A DNA stretch of 64,000 nucleotides from Escherichia coli (GTDB taxonomy: Bacteria > Pseudomonadota > Gammaproteobacteria > Enterobacterales > Enterobacteriaceae), in NCBI RefSeq assembly GCF_002854065.1, contig NZ_CP024151.1; one strand, written 5' to 3'. Positions 18,295 to 37,832 of the stretch are shown here, in pieces; within the stretch, counting starts at the first letter, position 1, and each line of letters opens with the position of its first letter. The notes under the pieces were generated by a model. It saw only the letters and a program-made list of their open reading frames with translations, did not search any database and was not told the origin of the DNA. The position numbers and the translations under genes were made by a program.

Positions 18295-21200
18295 ATGAGC
18301 CATAAATTTTATTATGTTATCTCTTTCCTTCTCTCTCTGGCATCATCACCTTCGATAGGTGATGAAATGAATTGCCAACGTTATTTTTGTTTTGTTAATG
18401 GCATTGTTGAAATAAGGACTGCTCCCGAAGAATATCAAAACAAGCCAGTTCTGGTTGGTTCACAAAGTGACGGGCTATTAATTATTGATAATCATGCGGA
18501 TATTGAGGATGGTATATTTTCCACACTTCATATTGGTAATGGATATAATGGTGCTGTTGATGTTATTAATGGTGCTGCTTTACATATGGATAATCGTTCA
18601 GGAAGCGCACCTCTTATTGTAGGTGCATTCGGTAATGATATTGCAGGAAAACTTAATATTTCTGGCAGAAACAGTATAGTATCATATAGAGATACGCCCA
18701 GCAGTTCTGGACATAACGAATCTATTTATGTCGGTTTTGGGCCTGGTGCAACAGGATGGATTAATATTTTTAATGGTGGAGTATTTGAAGTTTTAAATAG
18801 TACTAATATATATGTAGGTTCAGATACTCCTGGTGGGGGAGATGGCAGTATCGTGATTGATGGCAGCAACAGCAAGATGACCGCAGATTTTTCTGAGGCA
18901 TATGTCGGGCTTTATGGTAATGGTGATATTTCCTTAAAAAATGGAGGTCAGTTATCTGCCAGTAACTTATATATAGGAGGTAATGGTAGAGCCATTGTTA
19001 ATATAAGCGGTACTGATTCCAGATTAATTGCAAATATGATAACCATATCAGGAAGTTCTGGTGCGCCGGGTATTTACATAGCAGATCAAGGAATTCTTAA
19101 TGTAGATAACTACATCAATATAACTACGGCAAATGACACAAAAGGGAAATTATTCATCAATAGCGATATGCCTGGAACTATTGAATCTAAAGGGATTCTT
19201 TTTGGTGTTGGGAAGGCAGAGTTGATTTTTAAACATAACTCTGACAATTATGCTTTTTCATCACCTTTAATTTCTAAAAACACAGGTAATGGTATAATTA
19301 ATGCAGAGAGTGGCGAGACGCATCTCACGGGAGATAATACCGATTATAGTGGTTTGTTGAATATTTTACCCACGGCAAGTATTGATATCAGTAGTCAAAA
19401 AAATATCGGCAAGTCAGTAATTGTTAATAATGGGGTGCTGCAAATAACCAGCCAGGATGACTGGACATTCAATAATAATATGACTGGTAACGGTTATCTT
19501 AATGTTCATACTGGTGGACATAATTTTGCTTTCCAGAATTCAACGAATACACAGGAATTTACAGGTACGCTGGCATTGTCTGATACACTCTTTGACTTGA
19601 GTGACGACAATACCACTGCACTAACTTCAGCACTAGTGCTTGCTGGGGTCGGGAGTGTGATAACTGCAGGTACTGGAACTCAGGTTATTAACGGATTTTC
19701 ATTTGACGGTGGAGCCGTAAATTTCGGTGCCGTAACTCAGGGAGCTCAGCAAACTGAATCCCAGATTCAGGTTACTGACAATCTGTATATCAATGGAAAT
19801 GGTGCTGTACGGGTTTCAACACCCACAGATGTGAATGGTATTCCACAGGTTATTAATTCTTCACTTTCATTGCTGGAACAGGATGACAGTAATGCCACCA
19901 TTAAACTTGTAGATGCAAGTTCCGCAGTTGTAAAGGGGAATGGTGGAAACCTTCAACTGCAGGATGCCTCCGGGCAAGTAATATCCTCAGGTAAGCAAAG
20001 GAATATAGTTCAACTGGGAAAAAATGTTGCTAAGGGGGTATACGATTATCGTCTGACATCAGGGCCCCATAATGATGGACTGTATATAGGTTATGCTCTG
20101 ACTCAGCTTGATTTGCTAGCCTCTGGTGTTGATGCACTCGTGCTTGATGCTGCAGGTACAACTGGAAATGCAGCAGACATGAGTGCCCGTATCACAGGTG
20201 CCGGAGACCTGGCTTTCAACAGTCAGAAAGGAGAAACCGTTTCTCTGTCGAATCAGGATAATGATTACACAGGAGTTACAGCTATCCGCGGTGGTAATGT
20301 CCTCATGAACAGCAACAGTGTTCTGGGACAGACCAGCGAGATTCGTCTGGCTACTGATACCCGGCTGGACATGAACGGTCATAGCCAGACTGTTGGTAAG
20401 CTTAATGGTGCTGCAGGTTCTGTACTGAACATCAATGGCGGGAATTTGACCCTGACTGATGATGGCGTATCTGCCGGTACTCTGACTGGAGGTGGCTTCC
20501 TGAATATCAGCGGCGGCGTCCTCGATATTACAGGAGGCAACCACACTTTTGCTGTCAGCACCATAATAGCAAAAGATGCAACTGTCCGAATGAACGATGT
20601 TTCCGGACTGGGTACTGGTAACATCAGTAACGCTGGGACATTATCTCTTACTCATGCCTCAGGCTTGCTAAGTAATAATCTGAGTGGTTCTGGTACAGTA
20701 TCTTTGATCAATAGTGATACCCAGATTTCAGGAAATAACAGTAACTACTCAGGGCTGTTTGTAGTAGATACCAGCTCTCAGTTGACTGCCACTGGAGCGC
20801 AGAATCTTGGGATTGCTTCCGTGAGTAACCGTGGAATCTTGCAGCTGAACAACACAACAGACTGGCAACTTATAAATAATGTTACTGGAACCGGTAATGT
20901 CCGTAAAACCGGTTCCGGTTCACTGACTGTCCGAAGCAATGCTGCCTGGAGCGGACAGACAGATATTGATGACGGCTCTCTGATTCTTGGGCAATCTGAT
21001 GCACCTGTCATGCTCGCCAGTAGCCTGGTCAATATTGCAAAGAACGGTAAACTTACCGGATTTGGTGGCGTAGTAGGGAACGTAACCAATAGTGGAAGCC
21101 TTGACCTGCGATCGGCGGCTCCGGGAAATATTCTGACGATTGGAGGTAACTACACCGGTAATAATGGCACGCTGCTCATTAACACAGTGCTGGATGATAG

Positions 21201-22482
21201 CTCTTCTGCAACCGACAAACTGGTAATTAAAGGCGATGCGTCCGGTAAGACCCGAGTGGCTGTTACGAATGTTGGTGGTTCAGGCGCTAATACGCTGAAT
21301 AGTATTGAAGTTATTCATGTTGATGGTAATGCAGCTAACGCTGAATTTATTCAGGCCGGACGTATAGCGGCCGGCGCTTATGACTACACTCTTGGACGTG
21401 GGCCGGGAAGCAACTATGGAAACTGGTATCTGAGCAGTAGTAAAAACACTCCAGAACCAAGGCCTGATCCTGAACCTACTCCGGAAGGGCATGATAACAA
21501 CCTGCGCCCGGAAGCCAGCTCCTATACCGCGAATATAGCTGCGGCAAACACCATGTTTGTGACCCGCCTTCATGAACGTCTGGGGCAGACGCAATACGTC
21601 GATGCAATTACCGGAGAACCGAAAGCAACCAGTATGTGGATGCGCCATGAAGGAGGACATAACCGCTGGCGCGACGGTTCTGGTCAACTGAAAACTCAAA
21701 GTAATCGTTATGTGATTCAACTGGGTGGTGATATCGCACAATGGGATTGGGGTGGAACTAACCGCTGGCATCTGGGGGTTATGGCTGGTTACGGTAACAA
21801 CCATAGCAGTACAGGTGCAGTACGCACCGGATACCATTCAAAAGGCAGCGTAAATGGTTACAGTACCGGGCTGTATGCTACCTGGTATGCTGATGATGAG
21901 ACTCATAACGGAGCTTATCTGGATACCTGGGCTCAGTACGGCTGGTTCGATAACCATGTGAAAGGTGACGGACTGCCGGGTGAATCCTGGAAATCAAAAG
22001 GACTTACCGCCTCACTGGAAACAGGTTATGCCTGGAAAATCGGGGAATTCAGCAGCAACTATGGCAATCTGAACGAATGGTATGTTCAGCCTCAGGCCCA
22101 GCTTGTCTGGATGGGGGTTAAAGCTGATGAACTCTATGAAAGTAACGGTACTCTTATTGAAAGCACCGGAGACGGTAATGTCCATACCCGTCTGGGCGTG
22201 AAAACCTGGATTAAAAGGCTCAATAAAATGGATGATGGTAAATCACGTGAGTTCAGCCCATTTGTGGAGGTGAACTGGTTGCATAATACCCGTGATTTTG
22301 GGGTTCGTATGAACGGCGAACCGGTGTATCAGGATGGTACCCGTAATATCGGAGAGGTCAAAACTGGTGTGGAAGGTCAAATAAATCCCCATCTGAACCT
22401 GTGGGGGAATGTGAGAGTTCAAGTTGGTGATAAAGGGTATAACGACACCTCAGCCATGCTGGGTGTGAAGTATACATTCTGA
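18295..22482 (+). CDS. Type Va autotransporter, adhesin-like (AIDA/pertactin-type beta-helical passenger, C-terminal beta-barrel)
   Basis: 1395-aa ORF; repetitive G/N/T-rich passenger, proline-rich linker PEPRPDPEPTPE, C-terminal barrel ending in the aromatic motif GVKYTF; no serine-protease GDSGS motif, so not SPATE-like; low-GC, AT-rich upstream region. Confidence 0.8.
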   Translation: MSHKFYYVISFLLSLASSPSIGDEMNCQRYFCFVNGIVEIRTAPEEYQNKPVLVGSQSDGLLIIDNHADIEDGIFSTLHIGNGYNGAVDVINGAALHMDNRSGSAPLIVGAFGNDIAGKLNISGRNSIVSYRDTPSSSGHNESIYVGFGPGATGWINIFNGGVFEVLNSTNIYVGSDTPGGGDGSIVIDGSNSKMTADFSEAYVGLYGNGDISLKNGGQLSASNLYIGGNGRAIVNISGTDSRLIANMITISGSSGAPGIYIADQGILNVDNYINITTANDTKGKLFINSDMPGTIESKGILFGVGKAELIFKHNSDNYAFSSPLISKNTGNGIINAESGETHLTGDNTDYSGLLNILPTASIDISSQKNIGKSVIVNNGVLQITSQDDWTFNNNMTGNGYLNVHTGGHNFAFQNSTNTQEFTGTLALSDTLFDLSDDNTTALTSALVLAGVGSVITAGTGTQVINGFSFDGGAVNFGAVTQGAQQTESQIQVTDNLYINGNGAVRVSTPTDVNGIPQVINSSLSLLEQDDSNATIKLVDASSAVVKGNGGNLQLQDASGQVISSGKQRNIVQLGKNVAKGVYDYRLTSGPHNDGLYIGYALTQLDLLASGVDALVLDAAGTTGNAADMSARITGAGDLAFNSQKGETVSLSNQDNDYTGVTAIRGGNVLMNSNSVLGQTSEIRLATDTRLDMNGHSQTVGKLNGAAGSVLNINGGNLTLTDDGVSAGTLTGGGFLNISGGVLDITGGNHTFAVSTIIAKDATVRMNDVSGLGTGNISNAGTLSLTHASGLLSNNLSGSGTVSLINSDTQISGNNSNYSGLFVVDTSSQLTATGAQNLGIASVSNRGILQLNNTTDWQLINNVTGTGNVRKTGSGSLTVRSNAAWSGQTDIDDGSLILGQSDAPVMLASSLVNIAKNGKLTGFGGVVGNVTNSGSLDLRSAAPGNILTIGGNYTGNNGTLLINTVLDDSSSATDKLVIKGDASGKTRVAVTNVGGSGANTLNSIEVIHVDGNAANAEFIQAGRIAAGAYDYTLGRGPGSNYGNWYLSSSKNTPEPRPDPEPTPEGHDNNLRPEASSYTANIAAANTMFVTRLHERLGQTQYVDAITGEPKATSMWMRHEGGHNRWRDGSGQLKTQSNRYVIQLGGDIAQWDWGGTNRWHLGVMAGYGNNHSSTGAVRTGYHSKGSVNGYSTGLYATWYADDETHNGAYLDTWAQYGWFDNHVKGDGLPGESWKSKGLTASLETGYAWKIGEFSSNYGNLNEWYVQPQAQLVWMGVKADELYESNGTLIESTGDGNVHTRLGVKTWIKRLNKMDDGKSREFSPFVEVNWLHNTRDFGVRMNGEPVYQDGTRNIGEVKTGVEGQINPHLNLWGNVRVQVGDKGYNDTSAMLGVKYTF

Positions 22483-22515: not shown

Positions 22516-23710
<1,195 letters not shown>

Positions 23711-32709: not shown

Positions 32710-34407
32710 TCATTTCACGTTAGTTAAAGATTTTTTTATATTCTCAAATTTGGCTTGGTTGATATCACTGATCGGTTTTTGACTTGACGTGATGAAGTCA
32801 ATCATAACAGCCTTCATATTCTTAACCACATCAGGATGGGATGCAGAGAGATCTTTAGTTTGTTGCAGATCGTTGATATCGTACAGAGCTAGTTTATTCT
32901 CTGCATAGGTGTAAACCAGAGAATAATCGTTGCTTCTTACAGTGTATGCAAACTGGCTTAAGTCTTCTGTATGTGGGTTGTGCGGATAATCATCAGACTC
33001 TTTTCTCACGAATTTATGATATCCGTTCCAGAATGCAGTGTTCTCTTCGTCCCACCAGTGAGAATAAGAGGTAATCCAGGACAGATATTTGTGAGGTTCG
33101 CCAGCTGCAGATTTCTTATCAGCTCCTTTCTGTACATATGGCAATAATGATACACCATCTAGTTTCAGAGAAGCAGGGATCTTGATATCTGCGGCATCTA
33201 AAGCGGTCGGATAGAAGTCCATTGATGAAACCAGTTTGTCATAATCACCCGTTTTCAGCTTGCCATTCCACCACATGAACATAGGTGTATGCATACCACC
33301 CGGATACGGTTGGCCTTTGTAACCAGCCTGCGCACCATTCAGTGGCAGTGGACCATCAATTACAGCACCGTTATCAGAGGTGAACAGAATGATGGTGTTG
33401 TCGTACTGACCTTTTTCCTTAAGTGTATTCAGGATCTTTTTAACCCCCTGGTCAACGGAGTAAATTGACGCATAATAGTTATCAGCAGTCTTGCTACCAG
33501 TGTTGAATTTCTCCTGATAGTTTTTAGGCGCAGGCTGATCGTTAGGCAGGTGTGGTGCACTGTATGCCAGATAAATCATAAATGGCTGTTCCAGTTTGCT
33601 TGCACGGTCAATTACACCAATTGCTTCATCAGTTAATTGATCACTAATGTACCCTTCAGCTTTAATGTTTTCACGGTTACGGAACAATGACGGGGAGTTA
33701 TAAAGTGAAACGCCGGATGCGTGATAGCCCATGAAGTAGTTGAAGCCACGATTCTGAGGTTGCCATTCTTCTGCGGAGAAGGTGGTGAAGTTATCGTGGT
33801 AGTCACGGGTTTGTTTTTCTTCAGGCACACCTACGTTGCTGATTTTTGATAAGTGCCACTTACCGATTGCTGCAGTGTAATAACCATGATTCTGAAGTAA
33901 TTCAGACAGGAATGTTTCTTCCAGAGGGATACCATCCTGTGCATCAGAATTTGAATATACACCGAAGCGAGCAGGAGCTCGCGCCGTCAGGATTGCGGCA
34001 CGTGAAGGGCCAGAGACACCGTGTGCAACATAGCCGTTAGTGAATTTTACACCTTCGTCCATCAGGGCCGCTAATGTTGGAGTGGATTTTTTTGCAGCTT
34101 CAATTGCTTTATCAATACCTATTTTGTATGTATCAACAACATTTCGGTTATCCATCGTTTTAGGGTCAAATGAACTATCATCAAAAGGCAATTGTCCATA
34201 CCCTAAATCATCCATTGTTAAAACAATGATATTTGGCTTACCTTTAGTGCTGTATTCCGTCGGCGTGAAGTCCGCAAAGGCAACATTGGTTTTTGTTGCT
34301 TTGAGCTTAACATCATCTGCTGCATTTGCAGTACTCATCATCAGACCAGATGCTAATATAAGTGATATTGATGAGTTAAGCAGTTTTTTATTTAACTGAT
34401 GTTCCAT
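32710..34407 (-). CDS. Periplasmic sulfatase (alkaline-phosphatase superfamily), Ser-type
   Basis: Signal peptide; metal-binding N-terminal block IIVLTMDDLGYGQ; formylglycine-site motif S-G-P-S-R-AAILTAR with Ser rather than Cys; about 565 aa. Confidence 0.75.
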   Translation of the reverse strand: MEHQLNKKLLNSSISLILASGLMMSTANAADDVKLKATKTNVAFADFTPTEYSTKGKPNIIVLTMDDLGYGQLPFDDSSFDPKTMDNRNVVDTYKIGIDKAIEAAKKSTPTLAALMDEGVKFTNGYVAHGVSGPSRAAILTARAPARFGVYSNSDAQDGIPLEETFLSELLQNHGYYTAAIGKWHLSKISNVGVPEEKQTRDYHDNFTTFSAEEWQPQNRGFNYFMGYHASGVSLYNSPSLFRNRENIKAEGYISDQLTDEAIGVIDRASKLEQPFMIYLAYSAPHLPNDQPAPKNYQEKFNTGSKTADNYYASIYSVDQGVKKILNTLKEKGQYDNTIILFTSDNGAVIDGPLPLNGAQAGYKGQPYPGGMHTPMFMWWNGKLKTGDYDKLVSSMDFYPTALDAADIKIPASLKLDGVSLLPYVQKGADKKSAAGEPHKYLSWITSYSHWWDEENTAFWNGYHKFVRKESDDYPHNPHTEDLSQFAYTVRSNDYSLVYTYAENKLALYDINDLQQTKDLSASHPDVVKNMKAVMIDFITSSQKPISDINQAKFENIKKSLTNVK

Positions 34408-34502
34408 ATGGTATTCCTTCTGAGTTGCATCACGAACATTTATTAATAATAAAAGCCTCTGATATAAATAAAAACTATGTAAATCGTTTAAATGGATACC
34501 TG

Positions 34503-35639
34503 TTAAAACTGATACATCATACCAACAGCAAGTATATTATCGGTTGCAACTCCAGCCTTTTTGGTAAATTCGCTTTCATCAATAAGGTTAATTTTGTAAT
34601 CAATAAGAAGTGACATGTTTTTGTTCAGAAAGTAGTTTGCGCCAACATCAATATACTCAACAAGAGACTGATCGCCATAGTTTACTATTCCACCTTTAAC
34701 ATCCATCCCTTTGGACTGAACGTAAGCCAGTGAAGGACGCAGGCCGAAATCAAACATATACTGAGCCACAACTTCAATATTCCGTGCTTTATCTGCGATG
34801 CCTGCGCTACCAAATGGAGTCATATTTCGGGTTTCAGAGTAGTCAGCTGCCAGATACAGGTCATTATCATTATACTTGACCCCAACACCTGCAAACTCCG
34901 CATGTTTTCCCCCGGCAATCCAGCGAGGCGTAATAACTTCTTTTCCTTCTGAATCTTTCGATGTCATGAAACGTTTACGGCCTTCTTTTTCCTGCAGACT
35001 GGTTCTGTCGGCATTAGTGTAAGCGGCAACGATTCCAAAACCTTCATAGTCATAGCTTACGGAGAAACCATATCCATCACCATTAGCTTCAAGTAAATTA
35101 TCACGGTCATTTTTACCCTGATATTGAGCAGAAAAAGTAAGTCCATCAACAAGCCCGAAGAAATCTGTATTGCGCCAGGTCAGAACTCCGGTTGTTCTGC
35201 CGGTCATATAGTTATCAGAGTAAGTCCAGCTGTCACCACCAAAGTCCGGAAGTACGTCAGTCAGAGCCCCCACATCATAGGCAACACCATAGTTTCGCCC
35301 ATAATCAAGTGAACCGAGTATATTGTGGCGAATACCTGCAAATGCCAGACGATTTTTATCGTTGCGTACTTCACTTTCTGTCTTAAACCCCAGGAACTGG
35401 TATTCCCACTGACCAAAGCCAGTCAGGCTCTCATTAATTTGTGTTTCGCCTTTGAAACCAAGACGTGCAAATGTTCTGTCGCCATCCATAGAACCATCAG
35501 AGATGTAATGACGGGCTTTAACGCGACCATAAAAATCCAGTTTATTACCGTCTTTATTATAGATTTCTGCTGCCTGTGTTGCCTCACACAGCATTAATGC
35601 AGAAACGACAGAGCACACAACCACACTTAATTTTCGCAT
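34503..35639 (-). CDS. Outer-membrane general porin (OmpC/OmpF/PhoE family)
   Basis: Signal peptide then AEIYNKDGNKLDFYGRVKARHY..., and the C-terminal ...AVGMMYQF aromatic terminus typical of 16-strand porins; start set at MRKLSVVV inside the track ORF. Confidence 0.8.
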   Translation of the reverse strand: MRKLSVVVCSVVSALMLCEATQAAEIYNKDGNKLDFYGRVKARHYISDGSMDGDRTFARLGFKGETQINESLTGFGQWEYQFLGFKTESEVRNDKNRLAFAGIRHNILGSLDYGRNYGVAYDVGALTDVLPDFGGDSWTYSDNYMTGRTTGVLTWRNTDFFGLVDGLTFSAQYQGKNDRDNLLEANGDGYGFSVSYDYEGFGIVAAYTNADRTSLQEKEGRKRFMTSKDSEGKEVITPRWIAGGKHAEFAGVGVKYNDNDLYLAADYSETRNMTPFGSAGIADKARNIEVVAQYMFDFGLRPSLAYVQSKGMDVKGGIVNYGDQSLVEYIDVGANYFLNKNMSLLIDYKINLIDESEFTKKAGVATDNILAVGMMYQF

Positions 35640-36147
35640 AAAAAAATCCCCTGTGCACATTTTTAGTATGGTTTTAAAAATTAAACTATGGCGAAAAAAT
35701 TATCACCATGCAAATATGTAACAAAATATTTCTCGGTGATCTATGTTGTTGTTTTTATTTGAGGTTGTATATTTTCTAGTGTATTTGACTTTTCTTTCTT
35801 AAGTGTTATTTCTCGACCTTTATCACAGAACCATCTCCCTGGATATCCCCATAACATTGCATGAAAAGCAAGTTTTACCAATCTTGATTTTCAGTGTTAA
35901 ATAAGATTAATAACTGTAATTCTGCAAAAAAAAGAACACCATATGTAGTATGACTACGTATTCCACTCTGTTCGTTCACGGACTGGCATCGAAGTCTGAG
36001 GTGTACTGGCAATAGCGGATACAGTCATTTGTTCTTTTTTTAAGCATTCATCCGATGATACTTTTCCTGAATGCTACCGGAGTGGTATTCCCCTGCCGTG
36101 ATAGACTGGCCCCCTGAATCTCCAGACAACCAATATCACTTAAATAA

Positions 36148-36558
36148 GTGATAGTCTTAATACTAGTTTTTAGACTAGTCATTGGAGAGCAGATGATTGA
36201 TGTCTTAGGACCGGAGAAACGCAGACGGCGTACTACACAGGAAAAGATCGCTATTGTTCAGCAGAGTTTTGAACCGGGAATGACGGTCTCCCTTGTAGCC
36301 CGGCAACACGGTGTGGCAGCCAGCCAGCTATTTCTCTGGCGCAAGCAATACCAGGAGGGAAGTCTTACTGCTGTGGCCGCAGGAGAACAGGTCGTTCCTG
36401 CCTCTGAACTTGCTGCTGCCATGAAGCAGATTAAAGAACTCCAGCGCCTGCTCGGCAAAAAAACGATGGAAAATGAACTCCTTAAAGAAGCCGTTGAATA
36501 TGGGCGTGCAAAAAAGTGGATAGCGCACGCGCCCTTATTGCCCGGGGATGGGGAGTAA
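36148..36558 (+). CDS. insC: IS2 OrfA (InsC)
   Basis: Same 136-aa protein as at 17452-17862. Confidence 0.9.
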
Positions 36559-37421
36559 GCTTAGTCAGCCGTTGTCTCCGGGTGTCGCGTGCGCAGTTGC
36601 ACGTCATTCTCAGACGAACCGATGACTGGAAAGATGGTCGCCGCAGCCGTCACTCAGATGATATGGATGTACTTCTCCGTATACACCATGTTATCGGAGA
36701 GCTGCCCACGTATGGTTATCGTCGGGTATGGGCGCTGCTTCGCAGACAGGCCGAACTTGATGGTATGCCTGCGATCAATGCCAAACGTGTTTACCGGATC
36801 ATGTGCCAGAATGCGCTGTTGCTTGAGCGAAAAACCGCTGTACCGCCATCGAAGCGGGCACATACTGGCAAAGTGGCCGTGAAAGAAAGCAATCAACGAT
36901 GGTGCTCTGACGGGTTCGAGTTCCGCTGTGATAACGGAGAAAAACTGCGAGTCACGTTCGCGCTGGACTGCTGTGACCGTGAGGCACTGTACTGGGCGGT
37001 CACTACGGGCGGCTTCGACAGTGAAACAGTACAGGACGTCATGCTGGGAGCGGTTGAACGCCGCTTCGGCAACGAGCTTCCGGCGTCTCCAGTAGAGTGG
37101 CTGACGGATAATGGTTCATGCTACCGGGCTAATGAAACACGGCAGTTTGCCCGGATGTTGGGGCTTGAACCGAAGAACACGGCGGTGCGGAGTCCGGAGA
37201 GTAACGGCATAGCAGAGAGCTTCGTGAAAACGATAAAGCGTGACTACATCAGTGTCATGCCTAAACCAGACGGGTTAACGGCAGCAAAGAACCTTGCAGA
37301 GGCGTTCGAGCATTATAACGAATGGCATCCGCATAGTGCACTGGGTTATCGCTCGCCACGGGAATATCTACGGCAGCAGGCCAGTAATGGGTTAAGTGAT
37401 AACAGGTGTCTGGAAATATAG
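36516..37421 (+). CDS. insD: IS2 OrfB (InsD)
   Basis: 301-aa DDE transposase ORF overlapping orfA in the -1 frame. Confidence 0.9.
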
Positions 37422-37832
37422 GGGCAAATCCAGTATCCGGATGTGCTGCCAGCCTTCTCAGTTAACCGATGTTTTCCGGGCTTTTTGCCATACTGAGGAC
37501 TGATAACGTATTCCTGGTCGTAAAACCCGTCAATATGCGCCGGGGCATCGACAAAACTGACACAGTACGTCCGGAAAGAACTTAACGCTGCATGGCACGA
37601 CAATGCTGCCTTTGTCTTTACCAACAAGGCTCGTTCCCGCATAAAAGTTCTACGCCGGGATAAACATGGCGTATGGCTGCGTCAGGCCTTCACTACTTCA
37701 CACCGGAAGTCTTCCAGCCTGACACGAATATACCGTCCGGGCTCTTTCGCAGGTGCAAACAGTTTTTCACATTCGGCGAATGTCATTTCTGAATCCTGGT
37801 AACGCAACCACTGAACCGGCATATTACCGGGT

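Follow-up and report, generated by a model that had tools for sequence, protein, structure and literature searches.

Two large autotransporter genes lie beside the RepFIB replicon of the Escherichia coli F plasmid: ychA, which is located between ompP and the second autotransporter gene, and the downstream ycbB/yuaO, encoding a protein of 1769 amino acids (aa). These are the names used in the F-plasmid literature, in which ychA has been termed an 'AIDA-I like autotransporter adhesin' (PMC9997739; bioRxiv 10.1101/2021.07.20.453171). UniProt lists the product as 'Uncharacterized protein YuaQ' (YUAQ_ECOLI). Here we report the analysis of an autotransporter gene in a 64,000-nucleotide stretch of E. 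coli DNA (RefSeq assembly GCF_002854065.1, contig NZ_CP024151.1), referred to below as the window. An initial annotation, made from the sequence without database searches, had described the gene as a low-GC, AIDA-type adhesin with an atypical N-terminus, carried within a segment bounded by two copies of the insertion sequence (IS) IS5 and consistent with acquired cargo. We conclude, with a probability of about 85%, that it is the F-plasmid gene ychA (YuaQ), encoding a classical type Va autotransporter, that it is native F cargo with later IS insertions, and that its product is likely a surface adhesin or auto-aggregation factor.

Identity and distribution of the gene

The open reading frame (ORF) list confirmed the 1395-aa ORF exactly as the initial annotation had given it, with an N-terminus that reads MSHKFYYVISFLLSLASSPSIGDE and a protein start of MSHKFYYVISFLLSLASSPSIGDEM. 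Its product is identical to the F-plasmid protein WP_225390950.1 at 1394 of 1395 positions, the sole difference being residue 574, which is Leu in the window and Gln in F. The DNA of the gene, including 386 bp upstream, is 99.8% identical to that of the F plasmid (NC_002483/AP001918); the neighbours ompP and RepFIB are common to both, and the region is collinear with NC_002483. By exact-sequence lookup the protein also shares one 90% cluster with YUAQ_ECOLI. Since it is almost identical to the F-plasmid autotransporter encoded beside ompP, the gene is already known: it is the catalogued, not well characterised ychA/yuaQ. The initial annotation had staked its proposal on the absence of identity to a well-characterised adhesin; identity there is (99.9%), but to a catalogued protein that is not well characterised. 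In literature searched by gene names, yuaO and ychA/ycbB were found in passing mentions only, and nothing relevant was found for yuaQ.

The exact protein sequence was found on 734 contigs. A megablast search found the gene at 80% or more coverage in 78 of 72,556 plasmid records, including NC_002483 (F of K-12); nearly all of them are F-like conjugative plasmids of E. coli. In a set of 5,426 complete E. coli genomes the gene is present in 41, and those listed include several laboratory strains, such as XL1-Blue, Stbl4 and an MG1655 derivative; 13 of these 41 copies are chromosomal, as expected because F can be integrated. In the window ychA sits on an F-like IncFIB/FIC conjugative plasmid; in F it is one of a pair of autotransporter genes carried as cargo next to RepFIB. 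YuaO/YcbB, the second autotransporter of F, was considered as a paralogue and rejected, with 21% identity confined to the C-terminal part.

A sister allele (WP_096179647.1, on NZ_CP062905.1 and about 10 other plasmids) has 66% aa identity with the window protein over its full length. The two have in common a short leader, a Cys-x4-Cys pair, the order of the passenger modules and a gradient of G + C content at third codon positions (GC3). The sister allele differs in lacking about 110 aa of the middle passenger, and the region of roughly aa 690-895 is rearranged.

Domain architecture and leader

Pfam detected the Autotransporter beta-domain (PF03797) at aa 1114-1373 (E = 4.9e-39), covering profile positions 1-254 of 255, and the AC_1 autochaperone at aa 929-1033 (E = 2.8e-25); the Pertactin domain was also matched, and TIGR01414 scored 391 bits. 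Residues 935-1395, a span that includes a helix at aa 1072-1094, match the AIDA-I transport unit (4MEE) by sequence with an E-value of 2.9e-93. In the AlphaFold2 (AF2) model of aa 901-1395 (pLDDT 86.4, pTM 0.83) a helix is followed by 12 long strands, and Foldseek aligned the translocator model to 4MEE with an E-value of 1.7e-44, a TM-score (target) of 0.96 and a root mean square deviation of 1.4 Å. The autochaperone region matches the IcsA structures 3ML3 and 5KE1, and the C-terminal residue of the protein is aromatic (Phe).

The AF2 model of aa 1-1110, built on a 23-sequence alignment, has a mean pLDDT of 86.5 and an all-beta passenger, and is disordered at aa 1-30 (pLDDT < 50) and in a Pro-rich region at aa 1051-1067, which contains the stretch PEPRPDPEPTPEG at aa ~1052-1064. 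The structures in the PDB matched by the passenger model (Foldseek) were those of Ag43 (7KO9/7KOH, E ~1e-8), IcsA, pertactin, Hap, Hbp and IgA1 protease; as the global TM-scores were low, the fold assignment is based on E-value and probability. The beta-helical passenger, proline-rich linker and C-terminal barrel of the initial annotation are thus borne out by Pfam, 4MEE, AF2 and Foldseek. Equally sound was the statement that the protein is not of the Tsh/SPATE type: neither a GDSGS nor a GDSG motif was found in it, and even at E <= 10 Pfam returned nothing catalytic, whether Peptidase_S6, lipase or any other domain. Taken together, sequence and models predict a type Va autotransporter with all parts present, namely leader, beta-helix of about 1000 residues, AC_1, linker with helix, and 12-strand barrel. 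The coordinates of these parts and of the neighbouring elements are given in Table 1.

Table 1. Features of the ychA/yuaQ locus, with positions in the window
Feature	Position	Strand	Remarks
Upstream IS5 (ISKpn26-like), 1195 bp	15420..16614	-	flanks CTAA / TTAA, without target duplication
IS2, 37 bp missing at the ompP-proximal end	16615..17908	-	compared with the complete IS2 of pPM4-5-103k
AT-rich native upstream region	17909..18294	+	31% GC; collinear with F from 17909 onward
ychA / yuaQ coding sequence	18295..22482	+	1395 aa plus stop; predicted type Va autotransporter; from ORF list and F-plasmid identity
Predicted Sec signal peptide, aa 1-22	18295..18360	+	n: MSHK; h: FYYVISFLLSLA; c: SSPSIG; probable cleavage between SIG and DE
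Internal Shine-Dalgarno-like AGGTGAT and Met25 ATG	18357..18369	+	start of the 1371-aa UniProt/older GenBank model
Passenger N-terminal beta-helix 'head', aa 23-320	18361..19254	+	AF2 beta strands, high pLDDT
Passenger repeat module A, aa 321-591	19255..20067	+	internal duplication; ends in VYDYRLTSGP
Passenger repeat module A', aa 787-1037	20653..21405	+	internal duplication; contains AC_1 (929-1033)
Pro-rich disordered linker, aa 1051-1067	21445..21495	+	AF2 pLDDT < 50
Alpha-helix predicted in the barrel pore, aa 1072-1094	21508..21576	+	AF2 DSSP; inside the 4MEE alignment
Predicted 12-strand C-terminal beta-barrel, aa 1114-1395	21634..22479	+	PF03797 and 4MEE matches; C-terminus ...KYTF
Downstream IS5 (ISKpn26-like)	22516..23710	+	starts 33 bp past the stop codon; identical to and inverted relative to the upstream copy

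Within the passenger, an N-terminal head is followed by two homologous modules, A and A'. The alignment of aa 321-591 with aa 787-1037 has an E-value of 5e-11 with composition-based statistics, and scored 82.8 bits versus 31.3 +/- 5.4 (maximum 47) in 200 shuffles. Each module ends in a YDY motif, VYDYRLTSGP in the first and AYDYTLGRGP in the second, where it lies inside the bona fide autochaperone; module A' also holds a weak, below-cutoff PATR match at aa 870-897. The duplication is ancient, and the YDY(R/T)L..G end of each copy resembles an autochaperone. The only cysteines of the protein, C27 and C32, form a Cys27-x4-Cys32 pair just past the leader, and a similar pair is present in relatives that bear the ESPR domain. 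The head has a GC3 of 0.21-0.26 and a narrow distribution, with few occurrences outside F-like plasmids and phage-plasmids of E. coli. When aa 1-420 served as the query of an exhaustive HMMER search of 1.84 billion representatives, 190 proteins were returned at E <= 1e-3, the best full-length relatives being about 33-35% identical; a word-indexed search with aa 1-400 had given 3 proteins.

The protein could not be placed in a named family. The top NCBIfam model, the ECSE_1600 family (NF011422), scored 821.9 bits against a cut-off of 2335, aligning aa 386-1394 to model positions 760-1805. MisL scored 460 bits against a cut-off of 1297 over the C-terminal ~330 aa only, AIDA-I (NF033176) scored 342.8 bits against 1200 over aa 926-1395 only, and ShdA and YfaL/EhaC were also far below their cut-offs; the closest relatives found score likewise. 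The proteins of the ECSE_1600 family and MisL/ShdA of Salmonella are longer or differently built, and leave the N-terminal 385 aa uncovered.

The designation AIDA-type therefore needs to be divided. It holds for the translocation unit, where autochaperone, helix and barrel are homologous to those of AIDA-I of E. coli 2787, but not for the passenger. The passenger has no detectable sequence similarity to those of AIDA-I, Ag43 and TibA, although it shares the long beta-helix of Ag43, whose structures are its best fold matches. AIDA-type ~19-residue repeats were not found in aa 1-930 (Pfam at E <= 10, with the weak PATR match only), and aa 23-930 had no sequence relative in the PDB at permissive E-values. 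The ESPR, a feature of AIDA-I/SAAT proteins, is absent, and no glycosyltransferase ORF that could be the heptosyltransferase (aah/tibC) of AIDA-I and TibA is adjacent, the upstream neighbours being IS2, IS5 and ompP (in F, ompP). The protein thus belongs, without a family name of its own, to the broad AIDA-I-type (type Va) group, in which only its translocation unit places it; by the narrower AIDA-I/SAAT features tested, namely curated score, repeats, ESPR and heptosyltransferase, it falls outside. The literature label 'self-associating AIDA-I-like adhesin' is accordingly not backed by the passenger sequence.

The N-terminus had been regarded as short and unusual for an autotransporter. The predicted leader of 22 aa is indeed short, but appears to be ordinary, with a normal n/h/c Sec layout. 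Its 12-residue hydrophobic core (F5-A16) has a Kyte-Doolittle 9-mer peak of 2.57 at aa 8-16, and in the c-region position -4 is Pro while positions -3 and -1 are small (S20, G22), with acidic D23-E24 following, which suggests that aa 1-22 form a signal peptide cleaved between SIG and DE. From the aligned ATG the sister allele reads MKFDFNNLIFFAIYLISPPSIGDDMSC, with equal leader length; it keeps the hydrophobic core and SP(S/P)SIG followed by D, and its ATG is at the same position. Nucleotide identity between the two alleles is 62.5% in the 72-nt leader versus 39% in the 72 nt upstream. The ATG is preceded by an in-frame stop at a distance of 81 nt in the window gene and of 69 nt in the sister allele, and no other start codon is present between Met1 and the stop in the former.

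The protein has no match to the ESPR (PF13018). A 5'-truncated ESPR-type gene was ruled out, as no ESPR remnant was found in the three upstream frames and the in-frame stop intervenes. The alignments of the best full-length relatives found by HMMER begin at their residue ~31-88 and at query residue ~24-50. ESPR-type extended leaders occur in relatives P0021 and P0022 and in the more distant P0002, P0035 and P0045, and ordinary leaders of 20-30 residues in P0025, P0031, P0041, P0051, P0044, P0055 and P0078. A Swiss-Prot survey retrieved 228 short (<40 aa) autotransporter-like signal peptides, and 90 long ones from several sources were analysed (PMC2805444). It is because of the n/h/c layout, the conservation in the sister allele, the short leaders of relatives and this survey that we regard the leader as ordinary.

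Composition, insertion sequences and locus history

The gene had been described as low in GC. This is true of its first 1.8 kb, with a G + C content of 38.8%, but not of the remainder (48.8%); the whole gene has 44.5% and the window 50.2%, and the upstream intergenic region is lower still. GC3 lies in the range 0.21-0.33 up to aa 600 and 0.40-0.48 beyond it. The sister allele shows the same gradient, which must therefore predate the split of the alleles. The most economical reading is that the gene is an old mosaic, in which a low-GC head and first module would have been fused to a second module and translocator closer in composition to E. coli. The boundary after the first module (~aa 600) is also where GC3 jumps from about 0.3 to about 0.45.

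Compared with the sister allele, dN/dS (Nei-Gojobori) was 0.17 overall, 0.07 in the barrel and 0.14-0.22 in segments of the passenger, with dS ~1; for the 24 leader codons it was 0.43. As the ORF is intact, all modules are complete and dN/dS is low, the gene shows no sign of being a pseudogene, and these ratios indicate purifying selection on the protein.

Relative to F, the window has an IS5 and an IS2 between ompP and ychA, and beyond the downstream IS5 the ycbB/yuaO gene of F and about 7.9 kb are missing. The two IS5 copies are 100% identical and inverted. Neither is flanked by a target duplication, and the CTAA at one outer end is not matched by the CTGG at the other. The order of events can be read from sister plasmids. 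Plasmid pPM4-5-103k has a complete IS2 with a CTGGC target duplication and the downstream IS5 only; p886Rt_hybrid has the upstream IS5 as well, cleanly inserted and flanked by duplicated CTAA; and the window has the arrangement of p886Rt_hybrid minus 201 bp at the IS5, made up of one CTAA repeat, 160 bp of backbone and the 37 bp missing from IS2. The exact junction of the window is in no PLSDB record. Because the sister plasmids show this order, ychA is native F cargo around which IS elements accumulated: the IS5 and IS2 elements reflect independent insertion and deletion events that affected the F backbone later, and were not the vehicle of the gene.

Recombination between the inverted identical IS5 copies could invert the ychA segment. 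An IS5-mediated inversion was ruled out for the window, as the orientation of the segment to its outer flanks is the same in F, pPM4-5-103k and p886Rt_hybrid.

The sister allele lies on a 5.9-kb IS1-autotransporter-IS1 unit (NZ_CP062905.1, 5829-11727) with a perfect 9-bp target duplication, TGCCCTCTG; this unit is a real composite transposon. The replicon that carries it is phage-plasmid-like, with genes for SSB, a lysozyme and a large N6-methylase.

Upstream of ychA, the F-plasmid omptin gene ompP (14364-15313, minus strand) is split into two overlapping ORFs around 15013. The split is due to a 1-bp deletion in a homopolymer run (10 versus 11 bases), which is the sole difference from pPM4-5-103k over 5.4 kb. 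The gene may be truly frameshifted, the tract may be prone to slippage, or the homopolymer may have been misread in sequencing. Elsewhere in the window, an IS-flanked segment at 32710-35660 (minus strand) carries a sulfatase-family ORF (565 aa) beside a general porin (Porin_1, 385 aa), an unusual-looking cargo, and a second IS2 copy is present at 36102-37433. No SPATE was found among ORFs of at least 180 aa in the 27-44 kb region; the 'S6 family peptidase' belongs to related plasmids, in stretches that the window does not share.

Proposed mechanism and alternative readings

With every type Va part present, secretion would be expected to follow the established pathway. Translation would begin at Met1, and the 22-residue Sec signal peptide would carry the protein over the inner membrane. 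The beta-barrel assembly machinery (BAM) would insert the 12-strand barrel in the outer membrane with helix 1072-1094 in the pore, and the passenger of about 1000 residues would be threaded out from C- to N-terminus, its beta-helix folding at the cell surface from a nucleus formed by the C-terminal autochaperone. The passenger so exposed would consist of a lineage-specific N-terminal head followed by the two homologous modules, each ending in the YDY motif. Its most likely function is that of a non-enzymatic surface adhesin or auto-aggregation factor comparable to Ag43, AIDA-I and MisL, since the beta-helix is long and non-enzymatic, its best folds are Ag43 and IcsA, and the characterised NCBIfam matches are named adhesins (MisL, ShdA, AIDA-I, YfaL/EhaC).

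Several observations weigh against this account. The adhesin role is argued by analogy of fold, for a passenger with no characterised relative detectable by sequence, and no functional study of ychA/yuaQ was found in literature searched by gene names. The n-region of the leader is weakly basic, with one Lys (K4) and a net charge of 0 in the sister allele, and the Shine-Dalgarno of Met1 is poor (AAGG, 15 nt upstream), that of Met25 good. A promoter and terminator scan was not above shuffle expectation, for which reason no promoter is claimed; IS2 lies 386 bp upstream of the ATG; and the neighbourhood is decaying, with ompP frameshifted and ycbB deleted. A rival reading is translation from Met25, giving a leaderless cytoplasmic protein in which the apparent signal peptide is an untranslated 5' leader. 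Database models of 1371 and 1395 aa conflict because AGGTGAT and the Met25 ATG are present, directly after the predicted cleavage site and at optimal spacing; the sister allele keeps the motif as GGTGATGA(A/T)ATG, and Met25 was chosen by older annotations, in the 1371-aa UniProt model of YuaQ and by PGAP for the sister allele. Type V secretion, however, cannot bring an autotransporter to the outer membrane if it has no signal peptide. Both alleles have the 24 codons 5' of Met25 open and keep the same ATG, the core and SIG followed by D despite 37% nucleotide divergence, and similarity between them vanishes immediately 5' of the Met1 ATG. The conservation of GGTGATGA is also accounted for by the mature N-terminus that it encodes, the conserved G-D-(E/D)-M, and the signal-peptide cleavage region of relatives aligns to query residue ~24. 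On this comparative evidence, and because a type V protein needs a leader, we favour Met1 and consider a start at Met25 very unlikely. Import of the gene by the IS5 pair acting as a composite transposon, as the initial annotation implied, is more improbable still. Two identical inverted copies do bracket the gene, its 5' half is AT-rich relative to the plasmid, and the sister allele offers a precedent on IS1; but the gene occupies its F position between ompP and the ycbB side, the outer flanks share no target duplication, pPM4-5-103k has the downstream IS5 alone, the upstream copy in p886Rt_hybrid is a simple insertion with its own duplication, and the window differs from that plasmid by the IS5-adjacent deletion of 201 bp.

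It is unlikely, though less so than either of these, that the gene is a silent or decaying remnant, structurally intact but not expressed and contributing nothing, for instance because its AT-rich DNA is silenced by H-NS or because IS2 and IS5 disturb its upstream region. The 31% GC of the upstream region, the weak Shine-Dalgarno of Met1, the outcome of the promoter scan, the IS elements 386 bp upstream and 33 bp past the stop codon and the lesions in ompP and ycbB would all be compatible with such a state, and the F of K-12 strain WG1 is without the section carrying ycbB, ychA, ompP and the IncFIB replicon (PMC9997739). Against this, the 4.2-kb ORF is intact and one aa off that of F, all domains are complete, the exact sequence recurs on hundreds of contigs, the nearest 386 bp upstream are the same as in F, and a dN/dS of 0.17 at saturated dS points to long-term selection on the protein. 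It is highly improbable that the passenger acts not as an adhesin but as an enzyme or toxin that is secreted: enzymatic domains do occur in many beta-helix passengers, and the fold matches include Hbp, Hap and IgA1 protease, yet the Pfam and motif searches found nothing catalytic, the AF2 model has no secondary-structure segment suggesting a separate globular domain, and the folds matched best are those of two adhesins, Ag43 and IcsA.

As a discovery the gene matters little, having been in the F-plasmid sequence since 2000 and being routinely annotated as an autotransporter. A minor point of use concerns its annotation: the 1371-aa model beginning at Met25 drops the predicted signal peptide, and it is the 1395-aa model that has comparative support. 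A very well-known plasmid still carries two large surface proteins that apparently nobody has tested. A further suggestion, an unlikely one, is that YchA/YuaQ and its sister allele constitute a small, selectively maintained, mobile adhesin lineage, in which the head would give a binding or aggregation specificity that benefits the plasmid itself. If so, the lineage would not be generic host 'virulence cargo', and the head could stabilise mating aggregates or biofilm where F transfers.

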